A DNA stretch of 64,000 nt from an uncultured Bacilli bacterium (GCA_947626595.1 CANQST010000001.1:1076-65075); one strand, 5' to 3'; numbered from the stretch's first letter, positions 17,634-57,935 are shown. The notes: generated by a model from the sequence alone, not told the origin. Numbers and translations are program-made.

Positions 17634-18596
17634 TTATAGCGAAAATATATAAATATAGGCAATGGAGTTAGTAAAACAATAGAAATGATTATTATCTTTA
17701 TAATAAATAATATTTAAGTGGTTTTGTAAGGCAACATCTAGTAAATCTTTAAAGTTTTCTAGGAAGAAAGTTTGATAATTATTAAGATTAGGAATATTTT
17801 TAACATAGACGATTAATTCTTTATAATCTTTAAGAAAATTATTAAGTCTTTTTAAAGTATTTTTCTTTTGTTTATTATATATCTTAATTAGAGTAGTAGT
17901 ACTTATAATAAGGAGAATACTACCAAGAGAAAGAAGAATAAAGGAAATATTTTTAGATGTAGAAATAGTTCTTTTATAAGTTTTTTTAGTAGATTTAGTT
18001 TTTGTAACTTCTACTATTTTGTCTTTTAGGGGAATTATAAATTCTATTTCATCTTTTATTTTTTTATTAAGAGAATTAATTTTGTATGTTATAGAAAGTT
18101 CTAATTTTACATAGGCATTAGTAGATATATTATATGTATCTTCATAACTTTTTACTAGATTTTTATAGTAGTCATAGTCAATGCAGATATTTTTATTTAT
18201 TAAGTATTTCTTCTTAGTTATAGTTTTATTATTTTTATTAACAAAATTTTTCTTTTTCCAGATTTCTTTTTCTGTACCATTTTGATTAGTAAAGGTAGTA
18301 ATAAGTTCTTCTTTATAAATAGTAGTGTAAGAAATTTTTTCTTTGATATCATTATTTAATTGATAGAGAAAATTAATATTAAATGATTTGATGGCATTAC
18401 TTGGGAAAATACCTTTAGTAGTATTTTGATAAAAAGGGTTAGGTTTCAAATTAATAGTATAATTACTAATTTTATTTATTTCTATTTTATGGACTTTGAT
18501 ATTTTTATTAGATATAAAGATACTTAATGAAATAAGAAATATAGATATTAAAAGTAGAAAAATAGAAATATATTTTCGCATATTTTTCTTAAACAT
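17634..18596 (-). CDS. bitopic membrane protein (N-terminal TM, Asn/Lys-rich extracellular domain, second TM), last gene of the sipW operon
   Basis: 320 aa. Starts 5 bp after the sipW-like gene. Confidence 0.45.
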   Translation of the reverse strand: MFKKNMRKYISIFLLLISIFLISLSIFISNKNIKVHKIEINKISNYTINLKPNPFYQNTTKGIFPSNAIKSFNINFLYQLNNDIKEKISYTTIYKEELITTFTNQNGTEKEIWKKKNFVNKNNKTITKKKYLINKNICIDYDYYKNLVKSYEDTYNISTNAYVKLELSITYKINSLNKKIKDEIEFIIPLKDKIVEVTKTKSTKKTYKRTISTSKNISFILLSLGSILLIISTTTLIKIYNKQKKNTLKRLNNFLKDYKELIVYVKNIPNLNNYQTFFLENFKDLLDVALQNHLNIIYYKDNNHFYCFTNSIAYIYIFSL

Positions 18597-18600
18597 ATAA

Positions 18601-19683
18601 TCACCTTTTTAAAATTTCATGGAACCAAATAGATGGGTAACCTAGATATTTAAAACGAATTAGATATGTACCTTTAATTTGATTAACTTTTACTTTTTTG
18701 TAATCAGCGGTTTTATTATTATCACCTTTTGTTTGATATAAATTATTATTAATTTTTTTAATAATACGATGCGCAATTAACTGTTTATCTAATTCATAAA
18801 CAATAATAGTGTTTTCTTTAAGAGTTTCTTTTTCTTCTTTAGATAGTTTTTTTAAGATAATAATATCTCCTCTTTGATATGTTGGATACATACTATTAGA
18901 AAGGACTGCGACGGGGAAATATTTTAAAAAACCTAACATAAAACTTGAAAAAATAGTCGCAAAACCTAGTACAAATGCATATGGTAAAAGTGTAGAAGAT
19001 TTTTTCTTATCTATAAAGTAACTTTCTTCTTTTAATAAATAATATTTAATAGTAATGTATATTAATAATGATTTTATAATACTAATAGAGCCAGATATAA
19101 ACCAATTTATTTTAGGAAGAATAGGGAAAAGTAAGGGTGCAAATCTTTCTAAAATTAAGAAAATAATAGAAGTATAGTAACTGGTTTTATAACTTAGAAA
19201 TGTAGCGGTAATATGGGTTATAATAAGGGGAATAATTGTCTCTATAAAGTATTTAAATATAACTTCTTTATTACTTAGAGTAGGAAATGAACAATAGGGA
19301 AATGTAATAATAATTAGAAAAATGGTAATAAAAACGGGATTATTTCTTTTAAAAAGTAAAATACTTCGTAAATATTCTATGGAAAGAATAGGTATTCCTA
19401 CTAGAAAGATACTTTTTATAATATTAAGAAAGTTATATTTATATGGTGATGGTTTAAAACCACTTAGAAAACCAATACTAAAATATATAAGATAAGTAAA
19501 AATTTCTAATACAAAAATGATAATAAAATATTTTTTATTTTTGGGATAAGTAATGAGATGTTCTTTTTGATAATGAAGGGAAAATGAGAGTATAGATAGT
19601 CCTAAAAATATTTGGATAATATGATAAATATAGAGTTTTTTAAAGAAAAGTAGGATTAAAAATATTATTTTATTCTTGGACAT
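18601..19683 (-). CDS. SipW-type (archaeal/ER-type) signal peptidase I fused to an N-terminal ~230-aa polytopic membrane domain
   Basis: C-terminal S26B module with catalytic Ser in VLSNSMYPTYQRGD and His in LIAHRII. N-terminal ~7 predicted TM helices. 14-bp overlap with the upstream TasA-like gene. Confidence 0.65.
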   Translation of the reverse strand: MSKNKIIFLILLFFKKLYIYHIIQIFLGLSILSFSLHYQKEHLITYPKNKKYFIIIFVLEIFTYLIYFSIGFLSGFKPSPYKYNFLNIIKSIFLVGIPILSIEYLRSILLFKRNNPVFITIFLIIITFPYCSFPTLSNKEVIFKYFIETIIPLIITHITATFLSYKTSYYTSIIFLILERFAPLLFPILPKINWFISGSISIIKSLLIYITIKYYLLKEESYFIDKKKSSTLLPYAFVLGFATIFSSFMLGFLKYFPVAVLSNSMYPTYQRGDIIILKKLSKEEKETLKENTIIVYELDKQLIAHRIIKKINNNLYQTKGDNNKTADYKKVKVNQIKGTYLIRFKYLGYPSIWFHEILKR

Positions 19684-20170
19684 ATTCGATTATTCCTGTT
19701 ATAGTTTTAGTTTTACTATCATTTGGTTCTAAGTTTATATCTTTATCATAAGTAACTGTAATATTAAAAGATGTTTTATCGCCTGATTTTAAAATATTAC
19801 TAAGGGCAGTTGTTTCATAGGAAATAGCTTTAGAGCCATTAATTTCATCAGTTTGAAATAAGACATTTTTTAGTTTGGCATTTATTGTTCCTAGATTTTC
19901 AATGGTAACACGATAGGTAATAGTATCACCAGGATTTATTAATTTAGCATTAAAAGTAACTGTGGTATTGGTAAAATTAGGGTTTCCTGGATTTGTACCA
20001 TTAGTGGCATTTATTACTTCAACATTAGTAATACGAACATCCCAAGAGCTTATGATTTCAGCATTTCCTTTGAAATGAAACTCTGTTGCGAAAGAGGCAT
20101 ATCCAACGGCCATAATTAAAAGTAAGAGTAGGATAATACCTATTATTATATTTCTTTTTATTTGACGCAT
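19670..20170 (-). CDS. TasA/camelysin-like secreted protein with SipW-cognate signal peptide
   Basis: MRQIKRNIIIGIILLLLLIMAVGYASFATEF resembles the SipW-cognate signal class (…GGTYAYFSDTE). N/T-rich beta-rich body. RBS aaaggag 8 nt upstream of the ATG at 20170 (the ORF-track start at 20188 lies inside the RBS). Confidence 0.55.
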   Translation of the reverse strand: MRQIKRNIIIGIILLLLLIMAVGYASFATEFHFKGNAEIISSWDVRITNVEVINATNGTNPGNPNFTNTTVTFNAKLINPGDTITYRVTIENLGTINAKLKNVLFQTDEINGSKAISYETTALSNILKSGDKTSFNITVTYDKDINLEPNDSKTKTITGIIEYVQE

Positions 20171-20295
20171 AATTTCAACTCCTTTCATAAATTAAACTAT
20201 GAAAGGTTATTTAAAAATAGCAGTCCTCTTTAGTATTATATGTATTAATTTATTTTGTGATATAATTATATTAATAAAGAGAGGTAGTATTTTAA

Positions 20296-51834: not shown

Positions 51835-52326
51835 ATGATTTATTTAATTTCAGATACTCATTTTTATCATGACAATATTATTAAGTATTGTAATAGGCCA
51901 TTTAAAGATTATAAGGAAATGAATAGAGTTTTGATTGATAATTGGAATAAGGTTGTTAGTGAAAAAGATGTTGTTTATCATTTAGGGGACTTTGCTAAAG
52001 GAGAAGTTTATTTAAAAGAATTAGTTTCTAAGTTAAATGGAAAGATTTATTTATTAAGAGGTAATCATGATAAGAAAAATATAAAGTTTTATAAAGAGTG
52101 TGGATTAGAGGTAATACGTAATAAGACTAAGTTAGAAGAGTATAAGGTTATTCTTAGTCATAGTCCTCTTTTAGATGGAGAAATTCCAGAAGGGTATGTT
52201 AATATACATGGACATATTCATAATAATGATTTGGATGATTGCTATTTGAAAGATAGGCACATTAATGTATCAGTAGAAAATATTGGTTACAAGCCGGTTG
52301 AGATAGAGGAGTTACTGGCTAAGTAA
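51835..52326 (+). CDS. metallophosphoesterase (calcineurin-like)
   Basis: DTHFYHD, GDFAKG, GNHD motifs. Confidence 0.75.
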   Translation: MIYLISDTHFYHDNIIKYCNRPFKDYKEMNRVLIDNWNKVVSEKDVVYHLGDFAKGEVYLKELVSKLNGKIYLLRGNHDKKNIKFYKECGLEVIRNKTKLEEYKVILSHSPLLDGEIPEGYVNIHGHIHNNDLDDCYLKDRHINVSVENIGYKPVEIEELLAK

Positions 52327-52343: not shown

Positions 52344-53540
52344 ATGAAACGTATACTTATGAATAAAAATGTAGAAGTTTTGGTTGTTGAATATGATACG
52401 GCAACAGGAGTTTTTAATAGTATATATGAAGTTAAAAATATTGATTATGCACCATATATTTTAAAAAGTTTTTATAAAGAAAATGATATTAATGACACTT
52501 TCTTTAGAAGTAGTTTGAGTGAATGGTTTAAAGATAGAGGTATTCCTTCATGGCGTGATAAGTTAGATTTATTATTACATAGATTAAATATAACAGCGCC
52601 TTATGAACTTTTAGATAAGGCATTTGGATTATCTTTATCAGATCAGTATTGGCTAAAGCCTTTTGATAGTGATATTAAATATAATGATATTAACTTTTTT
52701 GATAATGACTTTGATTACGCTGAATTTATGGAGGCTTCATTATCAACTAATAGTAAAATAATAACTAAAGAGGCATCTTTGAAAACACCTAATAATACTA
52801 CAGATGGAATGCTTCAAAAAGCTTGGATTATTGATAATGGGGTAAGATACTTATTAAAGGGTGGATACAAAAATGAAACTTTACAACCATTTAATGAAGT
52901 ATTAGCTAGTGAGATATGTGAAAGATTAGGATTTAATCATGTAAAATATACAATAGATACATATAAAGATAAAGTTGTTTCTAAGTGTCCATGTTTTATA
53001 ACAAAAGATACGGAGTTAGTTACATGCTACCAAATAAAAAATGATATGAACAGGCATGATAGTGTAGAAGATTATAATGAATATATTAGGAAATTAGAAG
53101 ATAATGGAATAGAAAGTGCTAGAGAAAAAGTAGAAAATATGTATATTCTAGATTTCCTTATCATGAATGAAGATAGGCATTTAAACAATTTTGGAATTAT
53201 AAGGGATGTTAATACTTTAAAATGGTTAGATGTTGCGCCTATATTTGATAATGGACAAAGTTTAAATATTGAGTATTATGACGAAGAGGAATTACATATT
53301 TCTGGAGAAGGAAGATTGTTTTATGAGATAAAGCCTTTTGACGAAATAATAAAGGTAGTTAAGAATTTAAAAAGAATTGATATAGAAGAATTAGATGGTA
53401 TAGTAGAGTGGTTTGATAATTTATTACATAAATATCAGCATTTAACTCATTATTCTGATATGAGAATTAATAGATTATGTACTTTACTTAATAGACAGAT
53501 TAACAAGTTAAAGGAATTAATAGAAAAAGAAAACACTTAA
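52344..53540 (+). CDS. HipA-like Ser/Thr kinase domain protein (orphan, no HipB partner)
   Basis: ILDFLIMNEDRHLNNFGII matches the HipA catalytic loop (…GNxDxHxKNfS…). APIFDNG matches HipA (L)APAYD. Confidence 0.6.
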   Translation: MKRILMNKNVEVLVVEYDTATGVFNSIYEVKNIDYAPYILKSFYKENDINDTFFRSSLSEWFKDRGIPSWRDKLDLLLHRLNITAPYELLDKAFGLSLSDQYWLKPFDSDIKYNDINFFDNDFDYAEFMEASLSTNSKIITKEASLKTPNNTTDGMLQKAWIIDNGVRYLLKGGYKNETLQPFNEVLASEICERLGFNHVKYTIDTYKDKVVSKCPCFITKDTELVTCYQIKNDMNRHDSVEDYNEYIRKLEDNGIESAREKVENMYILDFLIMNEDRHLNNFGIIRDVNTLKWLDVAPIFDNGQSLNIEYYDEEELHISGEGRLFYEIKPFDEIIKVVKNLKRIDIEELDGIVEWFDNLLHKYQHLTHYSDMRINRLCTLLNRQINKLKELIEKENT

Positions 53541-53623
53541 TCATGGCAAATGGTTAAGTGTTTTAACAAAGAAATTTATCATAAAATATTGAATTGTTAT
53601 AGTACAATCACTTAGTGATGACT

Positions 53624-53707
53624 ATGAGTAAAAAAGATTTTTTAATACTTTCTCAAGTACTAATAATAATTTTATTTATAGTACTATTATTATTAAACAC
53701 TATATAA
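53624..53707 (+). CDS. 27-aa hydrophobic peptide, type I toxin-like (copy 1)
   Basis: MSKKDFLILSQVLIIILFIVLLLLNTI has a charged head plus a single TM. Followed by hairpin terminators. Weak SD. Confidence 0.4.
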   Translation: MSKKDFLILSQVLIIILFIVLLLLNTI

Positions 53708-53888
53708 TTACATAGCAAAAAATAAAACAATAGCGCTCAATCAAGTAGGTTGAGTACTCTTTCAATTTCTTTGGAGGAAGTACTCACTGCTAACAAGTAT
53801 CTTCCTTTTTTATTTTATGCAAATTTCTTTGACATATTAAATATAACATATTTCAAATAAAAATGCAACAAATTTTTTACAAAAAGTG

Positions 53889-53917
53889 TTGCATAAAATA
53901 TACATCTGTTATATAAT
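53889..53917 (+). promoter_or_regulatory. sigma-A promoter TTGCAT-17-TATAAT for copy 2 of the small-peptide gene
   Basis: ttgcataaaatatacatctgttatataat. Confidence 0.55.
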
Positions 53918-53945
53918 GTAAATGGAAGATATTTGTGAGAGTGCG

Positions 53946-53963
53946 ACCTCCTAAAAAGGAGGT
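53946..53963 (+). promoter_or_regulatory. 5'-UTR hairpin sequestering the Shine-Dalgarno (acctcc-taaaaa-ggaggt)
   Basis: A perfect 6-bp stem whose 3' arm is the SD aggagg 8 nt upstream of the ATG at 53971. This is a hallmark of type I toxin mRNAs. Confidence 0.5.
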
Positions 53964-53970
53964 GGTTACT

Positions 53971-54054
53971 ATGAGTAAAAAAGATTTTTTAATACTTTTT
54001 CAAGTACTAATAATAATTTTACTTATAGTACTATTACTATTAGACGCTATATAA
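53971..54054 (+). CDS. 27-aa hydrophobic peptide, type I toxin-like (copy 2)
   Basis: MSKKDFLILFQVLIIILLIVLLLLDAI. Strong SD aaggaggtgg. Followed by a perfect 11-bp-stem hairpin and a second terminator. Confidence 0.45.
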   Translation: MSKKDFLILFQVLIIILLIVLLLLDAI

Positions 54055-54405
54055 TTACGTAGAAAAAATAAAATAATAATAGCACTCAATCAAATGGATT
54101 GAGTGCTTTAACCAATACTGGAGGAAGTACTCGATACCAAACAAGTATCTTCCTTTTTTTATTTTATGCAAATTTCTTTGACATATTAAATATAACATAT
54201 TTTTAATAAAAACGCAACAAATTTTCCACTTAATTTATACTGGCTCTCCAGCCAGTAGTTCCTAACTAAGTATTAATTGTATAATTTAATCAGAGTAAGC
54301 TAGCATCTAGCTAGCTTACATTTCTCCTCTTAGTAGCAGCATTGTAATACTATCTTAGTATTAAATCAAATTATATGTAGATAATAATTGTAGGTGATGG
54401 TCTTC

Positions 54406-54453
54406 ATGAATAAGTTAAAAAATAGGCGCAATATATATATATATATATTATAG
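54406..54453 (+). other. orphaned translation-initiation region and signal-peptide N-region (MNKLKNRRNIYIYIL*) of the downstream FGE-domain gene, out of frame
   Basis: SD aggtga 8 nt upstream of ATG 54406. The 15-codon frame ends at TAG 54451-54453. The downstream ORF's frame is open back to 54426 (…YIYIYIIAVGIVIGFGSLVYAVGSVIESKSV…) and is +2 relative to this ATG. Confidence 0.6.
54431..54448 (+). repeat. (AT)9 dinucleotide simple-sequence repeat inside the 5' coding region
   Basis: atatatatatatatatat. Loss of one AT unit (or gain of two) fuses ATG 54406 to the FGE-domain ORF. Confidence 0.85.
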
Positions 54454-54524
54454 CTGTTGGAATAGTAATAGGGTTTGGTAGTTTAGTCTACGCAGTAGGT
54501 TCAGTAATAGAAAGTAAGTCAGTT

Positions 54525-55892
54525 TTGTATAATAGAACTATAAGTGGTGGAAGTTCAGATAATGTACAGGGTTCAATAGACGAATTATATAAAATGAGTG
54601 GAGTAAGTACTACTCAATATAAGGAAGAAATTTTAAACGGAGCAGACCCAGTATTGGGTGAAGGAATGATACCAGTAACTTTAGATGGTGATGGGACAGT
54701 AAAGTACGCTAATTTAAATACACCTTGGTATAAATATGAAGAAAAGAAATGGGCAAATGCAGTAATACTTAAGAGTAATCCAAGTAAAAGTTATAAAACA
54801 GGGGATATAATCTCAGAAAACGATATTGAGAGTTATTTTGTGTGGGTTCCAAGATTTAAATACAAAATATGGAACTTAACAAGTGAAGATGGGTATCAAG
54901 ATACATTTACTAATACTGCTAATGATGCTAATTCTATAAGACAACTTACTGGAAAAGCAAGATTAATAGACATAATATTTGAAGATAAAGATGCACAACC
55001 ATCAACTACAATAGCATTAAATTTATATTATACCCATCCAGCGTTTACTGCTTTTAGAGTAAATGGTTTATGGATAGCTAAATTTGAAGCTAGTGGTACA
55101 ACAAGTGCCATAACAGTAAAACCAAATATGACTTCTTTAAGAAGTACCACAGTTGGTTCTTTTTGGCATGCATTTTATGATTATAAAAATACTAGTGGAA
55201 ATCATAATACTAATTTAGATCCACACATGATAAAGAACACTGAATGGGGAGCAGTCGCCTATCTTTCTCATTCAGTATATGGAATAGGTAAAGAAGTAAA
55301 TGTAAATAATAATTTAAGTTTTAAAACAGGTTATTCGGCGGCATCAAATACTGACCAAAGTTCATATTCTGGAACTACCGGAACTAAAGAAATTACTGAT
55401 GATGATGGACCAGCAGTAACACAACCATATAATACATCAACTGGCTATCTTGCTTCAACAACAGGAAATATCACAGGAATATATGATATGAGTGGTGGTG
55501 CTTGGGAATTTGTAGCAGGTTATCTTGACCCTTATGGACTTAGTAATAATAGTGGGGTAGCAAGTGGCTTAACGGCTACTGATTTAGCTAAAGCACAGTA
55601 CTTTGACCAATATTCTGGTGCTTTAACATGGTCTTCTTACAGTAAGAGAATTGTTGGAGACGCCACTGGAGAGTTAGGTCCTTTCTACTATTATAAAGAT
55701 AAAGATAATTCTAGTCGCACTCATAATGGATGGTATGCTGACAGCTCTAATTTTATTGAACCTATCAATACTTGGTTTGTTAGAGGTGGTTATTGTGCTG
55801 ATGGAGTACTAGCTGGTCAGTTTAATTTTGATAGGTATACTGGAGGCATGAATGTCAATCGTGGTTCTAGGTTTGTTCTTGCAGTAAAGTAA
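54525..55892 (+). CDS. secreted FGE-sulfatase/SUMF1-domain protein (paralog A), currently separated from its start and signal peptide by a frameshift
   Basis: FGE-domain motifs: HPAFTAFRVNGLWIAKFEAS, MIKNTEWGAVAYL (≈LPTEAEWEYAA), GIYDMSGGAWEFV (≈GLYDMAGNVWEW), VRGGYC (≈RGGSW), NRGSRFVLA (≈GFR). The TTG at 54525 is only the first in-frame start codon in the ORF track. Confidence 0.65.
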   Translation: MYNRTISGGSSDNVQGSIDELYKMSGVSTTQYKEEILNGADPVLGEGMIPVTLDGDGTVKYANLNTPWYKYEEKKWANAVILKSNPSKSYKTGDIISENDIESYFVWVPRFKYKIWNLTSEDGYQDTFTNTANDANSIRQLTGKARLIDIIFEDKDAQPSTTIALNLYYTHPAFTAFRVNGLWIAKFEASGTTSAITVKPNMTSLRSTTVGSFWHAFYDYKNTSGNHNTNLDPHMIKNTEWGAVAYLSHSVYGIGKEVNVNNNLSFKTGYSAASNTDQSSYSGTTGTKEITDDDGPAVTQPYNTSTGYLASTTGNITGIYDMSGGAWEFVAGYLDPYGLSNNSGVASGLTATDLAKAQYFDQYSGALTWSSYSKRIVGDATGELGPFYYYKDKDNSSRTHNGWYADSSNFIEPINTWFVRGGYCADGVLAGQFNFDRYTGGMNVNRGSRFVLAVK

Positions 55893-55917
55893 AAGGAAAA
55901 AGGATGTGATTTATATT

Positions 55918-57900
55918 ATGAATAATAGAAAACAAAAATATATAATAATTGGAGCTTTATGTTTAGTTGTAACTCTACTGTCTATAGGTTATGCTGTATT
56001 GTCTGCTACCTTAAGAATTAATGGAACAGCAAAAGTATCAGGTGAAAAATGGAGTGTTGAGTTTGTAGAAAAGCAAGCGAGGACAATACCAAAAGGTAAA
56101 GCTGCTTGTGATATTGGTACTATCGCTAATACTTCAGTAACAAACCTATTAGCTAAAGTAAAGGTACCAGGAGATAGTTGTACATTTACTATACCAGTAG
56201 AAAATACTGGAACATTGGATGCAAGTTTAGTTGATGTTACTAATAAAGCTTTGTCTTTGTCATATGATGGAAATCAAGAGGATATTGATATCATAAGTAG
56301 TTATATAACTTATGATGTTAGATATGGTAACACACAAGTAAATAATGAAACTAATTTTGATAGCATTGATATCTTAGAGCCAGGTGAAAGAGAAACTATA
56401 ACTTTAAAAGTAGAATTTAAAGAAGAAGCAACACAAATACCAAATGCAGTTGTAACAGTAACAGGATTAGATAGAACTTTTAATTTTGAAAATAAGGTTG
56501 GTTCAAGTACTACTAGTCCAACACCTAACACAACTCCAGTGTTCAATGATACAAGTGGAGCTAATCAACCTGTGCTTAGTGACAATATGATACCTGTAGT
56601 ATATGACGAAACAAGAAAAGAATGGGTAAAACAAAATTTAGATAAAAGTTATGATTATTCACAACAAGTATGGGCTAATGCTGTAACTGTAGTTGAAGAT
56701 GGAACCCAAACAAGAAGTTATTATAAGAAAGCCAAAGCTGGAACTGTTATATCAATGGAAGATATAAACACAATGTGGGTATGGATACCAAGATATAGTT
56801 ATACTATTAAGAGTGAAGATGGGGAGAACTATTATGGTAAAGCAAGTTCAGATAATCAAAGTCCAACACAAGAATTACCTGGAGAAATAGATGTTAAGTT
56901 TATACCCATAAGTGAAAATGATAGTGATGGTAGTGCTCAATACACAGAAGAAGAACCAACTGGATGGTTTACCCCACCAGGGTTTAAATTTGGAGATAAA
57001 GATTTATCAGGGGTTTGGGTAGGAAAGTTTGAGACAGGTTCAATTGATGGAACAGATCATGGAGATGTAGAAACAGATAACTTAGTGGCAATTAAGCCTA
57101 ATATAACATCTTGGAGAAATATTAGAGTATCAACCTTAGAATTAGTTTCCATGGGATTAACTAAAACTGGAAATGTTTATGGTTTTGATAATACCTATGA
57201 TAGTCATGCAATTAAGAATACCGAATGGGCACTTATGGTATACTTAACTCAAAGTAAATATGGTAAATATGGAAATGCATTATATACAGGATCTAGTAAA
57301 GAAGTTTACATTAACAATTACAATAAGTATGTTACTGGCTGTTCGGGTGGAGCCGGTGCTGCAGATATTTCTTCAGAATGTTCTTATCATTATGATAATT
57401 TAACGACAAAAGGACAAGGGACTGGATATGCTGGAGCTGGTGCTTCAACAACTGGAAATGTTTATGGAATATATGATACTAATGGTGGCGCTTGGGAGTA
57501 TGTAATGGGAAGTTATTCAGCTGGAGGACAAAAATATTCTGGAACAGCAGTGTCAAACAATTCTGGATATGTAGGTAAAATTAATAGTGGAACTGCCGAT
57601 TTTAGTGAAAATGCTAGAGAATGGCAAGCTGATAAATATTATGACTTTTATACCAGCGGAGATACATTAACAGCATGTAATGGTAACCCATGTAAAGGTC
57701 ATGCTTTAAATGAGTTTTCACAATGGTATAATGATGGAATGTTTTTTATATTGAGTTCTTACCCATGGCTATATAGAGGTCATGATTATGGCTATAATGC
57801 AACAAGTGGAATTTTTGGATTTTCACGTAGTGGTGGTCATGCGTATGGTGGTGCAAGAGGAAATGATAGTTTCCGTATAGTCCTAACCCCTAACAATTAA
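55918..57900 (+). CDS. secreted protein with SipW-cognate signal, TasA/camelysin-like N-domain and C-terminal FGE-sulfatase/SUMF1 domain (paralog B)
   Basis: MNNRKQKYIIIGALCLVVTLLSIGYAVLSATL signal. Residues ~30-210 parallel the 172-aa TasA-like protein (PGDSCTFTIPVENTGTLDASL vs PGDTITYRVTIENLGTINAKL). The C-terminal half is collinear with paralog A (IKNTEWALMVYL, GIYDTNGGAWEYV, GFSRSGG…SFRIVLTP). Confidence 0.75.
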   Translation: MNNRKQKYIIIGALCLVVTLLSIGYAVLSATLRINGTAKVSGEKWSVEFVEKQARTIPKGKAACDIGTIANTSVTNLLAKVKVPGDSCTFTIPVENTGTLDASLVDVTNKALSLSYDGNQEDIDIISSYITYDVRYGNTQVNNETNFDSIDILEPGERETITLKVEFKEEATQIPNAVVTVTGLDRTFNFENKVGSSTTSPTPNTTPVFNDTSGANQPVLSDNMIPVVYDETRKEWVKQNLDKSYDYSQQVWANAVTVVEDGTQTRSYYKKAKAGTVISMEDINTMWVWIPRYSYTIKSEDGENYYGKASSDNQSPTQELPGEIDVKFIPISENDSDGSAQYTEEEPTGWFTPPGFKFGDKDLSGVWVGKFETGSIDGTDHGDVETDNLVAIKPNITSWRNIRVSTLELVSMGLTKTGNVYGFDNTYDSHAIKNTEWALMVYLTQSKYGKYGNALYTGSSKEVYINNYNKYVTGCSGGAGAADISSECSYHYDNLTTKGQGTGYAGAGASTTGNVYGIYDTNGGAWEYVMGSYSAGGQKYSGTAVSNNSGYVGKINSGTADFSENAREWQADKYYDFYTSGDTLTACNGNPCKGHALNEFSQWYNDGMFFILSSYPWLYRGHDYGYNATSGIFGFSRSGGHAYGGARGNDSFRIVLTPNN

Positions 57901-57902
57901 AC

Positions 57903-57935
57903 ATAAAAAAGACTTGGCTAATCGTCAAGTTTTTC
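57903..57935. terminator. bidirectional terminator between convergent genes
   Basis: aaaaaagacttggctaatcgtcaagtttttc (stem gacttg/caagt). Confidence 0.45.

Follow-up and report, generated by a model that had tools for sequence, protein, structure and literature searches.

Paralogous secreted proteins with lectin-fold heads in an uncultured gut Bacilli bacterium and their possible place on a TasA-like fibre

Variable proteins of diversity-generating retroelements (DGRs), among them TaqVP of Thermus aquaticus, TvpA and Mtd, share a C-type-lectin fold whose subtype is that of formylglycine-generating enzyme (FGE) (PMC6328139). C-Lec heads are also carried by the tip adhesins of Bacteroides type V pili, where they are either static or diversified by DGRs (bioRxiv 10.1101/2024.11.15.621889). 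The AbpX clade of the TasA superfamily has a multi-transmembrane signal peptidase I (SPase I), and a DUF5305 protein proposed as an accessory subunit; minor subunits and tip proteins of varied fold were predicted for it, the latter in a generic mention only (bioRxiv 10.64898/2026.01.04.697558). PilB and PilC of S. sanguinis are modular type IV pilins of monoderm bacteria (PMC8179133, PMC9934059). Here we describe two adjacent genes, A (54406-55892) and B (55918-57900), on the plus strand of a stretch of 64,000 nucleotides from an uncultured Bacilli bacterium (GCA_947626595.1, CANQST010000001.1:1076-65075; hereafter the window, GC ~27%). Their products, that of A once its reading frame is restored, carry a head of the FGE-type lectin fold behind a signal region.

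A and B belong to a very large family of secreted surface proteins found in uncultured gut Bacilli of low GC content. Our overall reading, to which we assign a probability of roughly 0.6, is that both are lectin-headed surface proteins, that B is part of a TasA/AbpX-like fibre and that A is switchable; its main uncertainties are the placing of the heads on a fibre and real switching at an AT tract in A. To a preliminary description of the region, whose observation was confirmed and whose interpretation was partly supported, we add the connection to DGRs, the family's size and the (AT)n frame switch.

The pair extends from the ATG of A at 54406 to the last base of the B stop codon at 57900, exactly the limits first given for it. 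A had been listed as an open reading frame (ORF) of 455 aa from a TTG start (54525-55892), and B encodes 660 aa from its ATG or 664 aa from an upstream GTG. BLASTP aligned residues 42-452 of A with residues 218-656 of B (473 columns, 30% identity; E = 1e-32), which establishes that the two proteins are paralogous and, as had been claimed, collinear, here over ~400 aa. Of the FGE-family motifs quoted in the earlier description, the NTEW motif (KNTEWGAVAYL in A, KNTEWALMVYL in B), a second motif (GIYDMSGGAWEFV in A, GIYDTNGGAWEYV in B) and the terminal motif (RFVL in A, FRIVL in B) were recovered, but at the aligned RGG site B reads RGH. Because only 25 nt separate the two genes, they are probably co-transcribed, and a terminator-like hairpin lies 3' of B (57908-57934, plus strand).

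The family unit consists of a conserved C-terminal head of ~430 aa and an interchangeable N-terminal module. In B the head comprises residues ~215-660 (56560-57900, plus strand), and A scored 310 bits with a hidden Markov model of this C-terminal domain. In three dimensions the head resembles FGE, SUMF2, EgtB, PvdO, TvpA and TaqVP, which places it in the FGE subtype of the C-type-lectin fold. TaqVP gave the highest structural match score (18.8, with 235 residues aligned), followed by PvdO (12.5), TvpA (12.3), CarF (11.4), Mtd (11.1), SUMF2 (10.4) and EgtB, ToxD and PorK (about 10.3 each). In structure and in sequence, the best match of the head was a non-enzymatic DGR variable protein: among PDB sequences, the homolog P0278, which is 48% identical to A, matched TaqVP with E = 1.3e-6. 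A profile built from the B-family alignment had no matches among PDB sequences.

The preliminary description had taken the two proteins to be FGE-domain proteins, and extracellular enzymes of the FGE/SUMF1/EgtB/PvdO type, either formylglycine-generating or acting as another oxidase, would be one explanation of them. The fold is common to FGE, SUMF2, EgtB and PvdO, and A showed a weak match to Pfam PF03781 at GIYDMSGGAWEF. This match (15.9 bits, E = 0.011) fell below the gathering cut-off of 23.3 bits, B had no match to the domain, and an NCBIfam search returned nothing for A or B, so the expected domain assignment was not borne out. Among homologs, P0278 passed the cut-off with 26.6 bits, the DGR target of locus L006 reached 22.6 bits and protein P0284 reached 18.8 bits. 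The catalytic cysteine pair of FGE, located in the C-terminal segment after the GGS motif, is absent in both proteins: A has a single cysteine (residue 424) that is not conserved among orthologs, and B has no cysteine after residue 592, nor any after the RG(G/H) motif.

In FGE the C-terminal segment is the active site; in this family it varies more than any other part of the head, with the highest column entropy of the C-terminal domain in the last ~50 residues (2.2–2.6 bits). In B, this hypervariable stretch is found at 57730-57882 (plus strand); it is equivalent to the variable region (VR) of DGR targets and is a putative binding surface. A candidate for a formylglycine-dependent sulfatase as neighbour was also considered and rejected. 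It is the only Pfam "Sulfatase" protein nearby, just past the end of the window (L001:18928-20724, on the contig of another ENA assembly), which is polytopic with N-terminal hydrophobic segments, lacks the C/S-x-P-x-R motif and looks LtaS-like. Since the head lacks the FGE cysteine pair and has its closest relatives among DGR variable proteins, we read it as ligand-binding and conclude that it would act through its hypervariable last ~50 residues and not by catalysis. An enzymatic role is very improbable, and the term FGE describes the fold of these proteins, not their function.

Word-indexed searches returned more than 1,413 homologs of B and more than 6,096 of reconstructed A. An exhaustive phmmer search of 1.84 billion cluster representatives yielded 3,493 family clusters at E <= 1e-3 and 668 at E <= 1e-30; the clusters are defined at 50% identity, and 3,493 is a lower bound. 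No family-specific Pfam domain or source-given name was present among the best matches of B, and a cluster look-up for family names or accessions gave none. Relatives in GTDB genomes belong to uncultured gut Bacilli, some labelled "Tenericutes", in metagenome-assembled genomes (MAGs) from rabbit and mouse, and include Candidatus Onthousia faecavium. One MAG can carry at least 12 family copies, and many copies lie at contig ends. In the search of 50% clusters, the head was mostly C-terminal, preceded by N-terminal parts of widely varying length. Three giant proteins, P0334 (3713 aa), P0335 (4516 aa) and P0443 (4340 aa), contained 6–10 matched head stretches.

Some members of the family are diversified by retroelements. 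At locus L046, an 83-aa Asn-rich ORF that matches the end of the family profile is a template repeat (TR), and the gene order is target gene, TR, an ORF with a MutS_I domain, bAvd and reverse transcriptase (RT), with RVT_1, bAvd and MutS_I confirmed by Pfam; locus L006 showed the same order by phmmer. When every ORF of 60 aa or more from the window and related loci was searched by phmmer with the L046 RT and Avd, a family member followed by Avd and RT was found in eight loci (L006, L035, L037, L045, L046, L049, L050 and L061), and six of the eight DGR-adjacent members were intact. TRs were identified in four of these loci (L046, L006, L037 and L061). Mismatches between TR and VR fell on TR adenines in 21 of 22 cases in L046 and in 15 of 15 in L006, and in both L037 and L061 one copy of a TR-like array had a non-adenine identity of 1.00 to the adjacent VR. 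The proven targets had GC contents of 0.51–0.61 in their last 150 nt, those of L046 and L006 were followed by a GC-rich hairpin past the stop codon, and the one in L006 is a B-type paralog.

The extra ORF between TR and Avd has a MutS domain I (PF01624, 32.9 bits) and is located at L046:2491-2892 and L006:9527-9967. Tandem arrays of 1.5–3.5 kb, with units of ~330 bp that each hold a TR-like copy, were observed between target gene and Avd/RT (L037:7390-9160, L045:6770-8610, L049:12380-13940, L050:5270-8560 and L061:12400-13930). Since the other array units match no paralog in the sampled loci, multi-template DGRs are possible.

Within this partly diversified family, A and B are static paralogs. 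Either or both could be DGR targets in trans, with TR and RT encoded elsewhere in the genome, given that sister MAGs contain proven targets that include the B-type paralog of L006, that some cassettes hold arrays of TR-like copies whose targets are unassigned, and that variability in the head peaks in the VR-equivalent stretch. Several results make this improbable. Neither RT nor Avd was found by phmmer in the 64-kb window, the window contains no second copy of the 3' end of A or B, and no TR for either gene was detected by blastn and an adenine-aware sliding comparison across the window and 82 loci. GC content in the last 150 nt was 0.38 in A and 0.39 in B, below the values of the proven targets, and the stretch of A in the VR position of its relatives (55734-55892, plus strand) is not raised in GC (0.38). 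Non-adenine identity to the known TRs was 0.40–0.46 for A and 0.38–0.46 for A and B together. The 3' ends of both genes were identical in the window, in L001 and in a third assembly (L002), and no GC-rich hairpin of the kind seen in L046 and L006 follows their stop codons.

A and B thus share the FGE-type C-type-lectin fold with TaqVP (5vf4), TvpA (2y3c) and Mtd (1yu0), but differ from these DGR variable proteins in having no cognate TR, no nearby RT or Avd and no GC-rich variable region, and their head is larger, ~430 aa with insertions. The head of the A/B family sits on signal-peptide or pilin-like modules, whereas TaqVP is a single-domain protein (PMC6328139).

The reading frame of A depends on a dinucleotide tract. 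In the frame of its ATG, a start stub of 15 codons (54406-54453, plus strand) encodes MNKLKNRRNIYIYIL and then meets a stop codon. The main frame (54426-55892, plus strand), which is open from 54426, encodes the rest of a signal ending VYA, a linker of ~50 aa and the head from ~54645. The two frames join at an (AT)9 tract in codons 9-15 of the 5' coding region (54431-54448, plus strand) and are out of frame with each other. With one AT unit fewer, (AT)8, A would be an in-frame protein of 494 aa starting MNKLKNRRNIYIYIIAVGIVIGFGSLVYAVGSVIESKS, and with two units more, (AT)11, one of 496 aa; the tract in the window is one base away from an in-frame (AT)11 state. A is therefore currently off owing to the frame shift at (AT)9, and since slippage to (AT)8 would restore the 494 aa, it is a candidate phase-variable copy. 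No other (AT) run of at least five units was found in the 64-kb window. Over 1.09 Mb (the window plus the loci), runs of at least seven units occurred only in A and in its L001 ortholog, in a count that did not include the copies of contig L087.

L087 is a second contig of the sample from which L001 derives (ERZ27249389; coverage 9.3x versus 8.4x) and carries another pair of B-like and A-like genes. The A-like paralog, A', has a 5' cassette identical to that of A except that its tract is (AT)8 and in frame. Its product (P0224) is intact, with 513 aa beginning MNKLKNRRNIYIYIAVG, and shares the N-terminus of reconstructed A, in agreement with the reconstruction made in the preliminary description. 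Intact orthologs of A, with 480–530 aa, covered 95–100% of reconstructed A. In classical simple-sequence contingency loci, such as Neisseria opa, Haemophilus lic and the genes for Mycoplasma variable surface proteins, a tandem repeat in the 5' coding region sets the frame of a surface-protein gene. A has the same arrangement, with the number of repeat units setting the frame: it is off with (AT)9, and A', probably from the same genome, is on with (AT)8. To judge from these sequences, the frame problem of A looks like a simple-sequence switch common to paralogs in different states. In the literature we found no description of an AT repeat unit inside codons (IYIYI) as a contingency repeat.

A different explanation is that A is a dead gene, or that its tract is a low-complexity assembly artefact. 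Two copies of A were sampled, those of the window and of L001, and in each the tract is (AT)9 and the gene off. Over 18 kb, L001 and the window share 99.967% identity and differ at 4 places, one of which is a 3-nt indel adjoining the tract. Apart from this neighbouring indel, no length variation between strains was seen at the tract of A and, unlike in contingency loci, no switching was seen between samples at the same locus; A could therefore be a fixed pseudogene. The protein collection searched held no in-frame version of the exact locus, and the 5' cassette with its AT tract had no match among the JGI metagenome contigs scanned. Independent assemblies also break at such tracts: the L002 contig begins just past the tract (window position 54469), and L087 opens within another (AT)9 tract, behind which lies a degenerate copy of the signal-peptide region (L087:1-60). 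These contig ends suggest either heterogeneity or assembly breaks induced by repeats. On the other side, the 1.4-kb frame of A downstream of the tract is fully open and keeps the signature motifs of the family, the identical cassette is in frame in A' on another contig of the same sample, the tract stands alone among (AT) runs of its length in the window, and it is one base off an in-frame state. We therefore consider a dead gene or artefact rather unlikely, though a serious alternative to a switchable A.

B begins with a signal region of 26 residues ending SIGYA (55918-55995, plus strand), whose Y25 and A26 reach a conservation of 90% or more across the family alignment. In the AlphaFold2 model, residues 4-31 form a helix, followed by a stretch of low confidence (residues 32-42). 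The next part, an N-terminal beta-sandwich domain with a linker (55996-56559, plus strand), is homologous to a small protein encoded 35 kb away on the minus strand (19670-20170, 166 aa, or 172 aa to 20188 from an upstream ATG). The first ~200 residues of B matched the longer form of this protein (19670-20188) by BLASTP with E = 1e-8, and phmmer gave E = 5e-10 with B and values between 1e-9 and 1e-12 with its orthologs. The aligned region extends from the signal (SIGYAVLSATLRINGTAKV versus AVGYASFATEFHFKGNAEI) into a strand with the pattern PGD-x-T-x-x-I-x-(V/I)-EN-x-G. The resemblance of B to the small protein in both signal and N-domain, which had been pointed out previously, is thus well founded.

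When the window was scanned for a basic N-region, a hydrophobic stretch and G-Y-A, only B and the 172-aa protein were found; the signal-pattern scan also gave reconstructed A, where the last part reads V-Y-A, and an internal false positive. Among relatives, the hydrophobic region ended in x-[Y/F]-A in ~70 of 80 full-length members from the loci and in 99 of 119 A-type proteins, often with an aromatic residue at P2' (SYA/LF, TYA/FF; the slash marks the cleavage site here and below). The head was also found behind other filament-subunit modules, namely a Pfam PF12389 camelysin/TasA domain in P0283 (41.6 bits) and a type IV prepilin N-terminus in P0284 (PF07963 pilin N_methyl, 31 bits), P0329 and L075. 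This repeated use of filament-subunit modules is the strongest indirect argument for display on a fibre. As in modular type IV pilins, a functional module is grafted on a filament subunit in these relatives; A and B differ from type IV pilins in having no class III (G/FTLIE) signals, their conserved motif following the hydrophobic region instead.

The small protein is a candidate major fibre subunit. Its signal ends AVGYA, its putative mature N-terminus is SFATEFHFKG, and its model is a beta-sandwich with a predicted local distance difference test score of 89.7. The adjoining gene (18601-19683, minus strand) encodes a polytopic protein of 360 aa with ~8–9 hydrophobic segments in a hydropathy scan of the whole protein, fused in its C-terminal part to an archaeal/SipW-type SPase I (TIGR02228, 76.9 bits against a cut-off of 51.85). 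It is followed by the gene for a DUF5305 protein with two transmembrane segments (17634-18596, minus strand; PF17231, 56 bits against a cut-off of 29), a putative accessory subunit of the peptidase. The order small subunit, peptidase, DUF5305 was kept in the relatives L083-L085. In L083, a second small gene (L083:3415-3906, 163 aa) lies directly upstream of the three-gene operon and may encode a second fibre subunit; the ORF list of the window has no equivalent at that position.

This operon has the gene content of AbpX-type loci, in which the genes for a multi-transmembrane SPase I (TIGR02228) and DUF5305 come after that of a small secreted subunit with a beta-sandwich, and the aromatic residue at position 2 of the putative mature N-terminus of the small subunit (SFATEF) is another AbpX-like feature. 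It differs from AbpX in that the small subunit has no sequence match to solved TasA-family proteins, has its acidic residue at position 5 instead of 4, and is less acidic (mature isoelectric point (pI) 5.0 with 11% Asp+Glu, against a reported pI of ~4 and ~15%), and in that the candidate tip genes A and B are 35 kb from the locus and not in it. Likeness to the TasA/TapA/SipW system of B. subtilis is seen in the archaeal-type signal peptidase gene next to a fibre subunit gene and in accessory proteins with the signal type of the subunit. TasA is cleaved at GTWA/AF, and the window proteins, with GYA/SF and GYA/VL, share its small-aromatic-Ala arrangement at positions -3, -2 and -1. They differ from that system in the large polytopic N-terminal extension of the peptidase, in having no TapA homolog, and in matching neither TIGR04088 nor PF12389.

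The last of these differences belongs to a set of observations that weigh against processing by this peptidase and incorporation into its fibre. Reconstructed A, B and the small protein gave no match to TIGR04088 (cut-off 19 bits) at E <= 10, while a TasA sequence passed as positive control with 38 bits and the distant family member L074 reached 12.2 bits. PF12389 (camelysin/TasA) matched neither B nor the 172-aa protein; it matched P0283, a relative with the same head. A-type signals end V-x-A (VYA, VSA, VHA, VNA) or AVA, which fits the -3/-1 rule, and an ordinary SPase I could also cut them. The "SipW-cognate" signal of the preliminary description is not supported as a formal class. The best Foldseek match of the small protein was the TasA fibre 8aur, but it was weak (E = 1.8e-3, TM-score 0.37), and the similarity to the TasA-pilin fold was no better than that to many other Ig-like sandwiches; against PDB sequences, its alignment profile matched nothing and its single sequence gave only a chance match. 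A distance of 35 kb separates the A/B locus from the peptidase locus in the window, and in none of 80 related loci was the peptidase or DUF5305 within 10 kb of a family gene. Given this lack of linkage, we only infer that the peptidase processes the family.

A and B might therefore act apart from the TasA-like fibre, held in the membrane by an uncleaved N-terminal helix or released by the housekeeping SPase I, with the likeness of the B N-domain to the small subunit reflecting domain shuffling only. The missing linkage in the 80 loci, the unmatched TIGR04088 model and the A-type V-x-A sites would all suit this explanation, as would the mostly C-terminal position of the head behind widely varying N-terminal parts, giant multi-copy proteins included. 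It accounts less well for the conservation of Y25 and A26 where the hydrophobic region ends, for the match between B-type N-termini and the small subunit, which begins at the signal and takes in the first strands, and for relatives whose N-termini are genuine filament-subunit modules of the TasA/camelysin or type IV pilin kind. On balance, fibre-independent action is unlikely.

In the fibre reading that we prefer, B would be cut after SIGYA by the polytopic peptidase, and its new amphipathic N-terminus (VLSATLRING, comparable to SFATEFHFKG of the small subunit and overlapping the low-confidence residues 32-42 of the model) would take part in donor-strand complementation with the 166-aa subunit. 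B would thus join a TasA/AbpX-like fibre as a minor or tip subunit and display its lectin head. A, with only a signal and a linker of ~50 aa before the head, might serve as a donor-only cap, or as a binding protein that is free or otherwise anchored, and would be switched by AT slippage, with (AT)8 restoring the 494-aa product. In sister genomes, one paralog per cassette is hypermutated at its last ~50 residues by a DGR with Avd and RT, whereas A and B are not. More tentatively, and with less confidence than in the reading of A and B themselves, this lineage may build donor-strand fibres that carry, at their tips or sides, a large and exchangeable repertoire of lectin-headed subunits varied by paralog expansion, by (AT)n slippage turning single copies on and off, and by DGR hypermutation of one head in each cassette, with the peptidase and DUF5305 as a machine dedicated to processing and assembly. 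Taken together, these would give a matrix fibre of Gram-positive bacteria a programmable set of adhesins.

The surroundings of A and B were also inspected. A prophage origin was rejected because housekeeping genes flank the window (FtsW, guanylate kinase, MurG and MurB in the gene table of L001). Immediately upstream of the pair are genes for a calcineurin-like phosphoesterase (51835-52326, plus strand) and a HipA_C-like kinase (PF07804, 32.2 bits; 52344-53540, plus strand). Between these and A lie two direct repeats of ~262 bp that are 87% identical (53615-53876 and 53962-54225), each encoding a hydrophobic peptide of 27 aa (MSKKDFLILSQVLIIILFIVLLLLNTI and MSKKDFLILFQVLIIILLIVLLLLDAI). The second copy is equipped with a strong ribosome-binding site (AGGAGG), and terminator-like hairpins are found nearby (54081-54107, minus strand; 54295-54319, plus strand). 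The repeat pair may be a duplicated type I toxin-antitoxin module; an Rfam scan of the intergenic region 53400-54500 gave no match.

Among described systems, Bacteroides type V tip adhesins are the closest well-characterised analogue, with the modular type IV pilins of streptococci as a second one. Type V tip adhesins are similar in combining an N-terminal pilin-type domain, of a strand-exchange filament, with a C-terminal lectin-fold head, in having paralog families that mix static and DGR-diversified heads, and in their gut habitat. They differ in phylum and machinery: type V pili are built from lipoprotein pilins with Rgp-type proteases, whereas A and B come from Bacillota with a TasA/AbpX-like system of archaeal-type peptidase and DUF5305, into whose fibre they would be incorporated. 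In the full-text literature, we found no paper combining DGR or FGE-sulfatase terms with TasA or camelysin. A filament-borne modular adhesin is a known kind of protein, and what is new here is a variant with a DGR-type lectin head, not a new category.

These results avert misannotation of the A/B family as extracellular sulfatase-modifying enzymes, and they provide candidate substrates for an unusual polytopic signal peptidase and its DUF5305 module. The candidate (AT)n switch could be scored from read data, and the DGR cassettes of sister MAGs (L006, L037, L046 and L061) target the same family. If our reading is correct, a large unnamed family of at least 3,493 clusters at 50% identity would gain a concrete role. 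Lectin-headed, retroelement-diversified pilus tips, so far documented for Bacteroides type V pili, would then extend as a concept to TasA-superfamily fibres of Bacillota.

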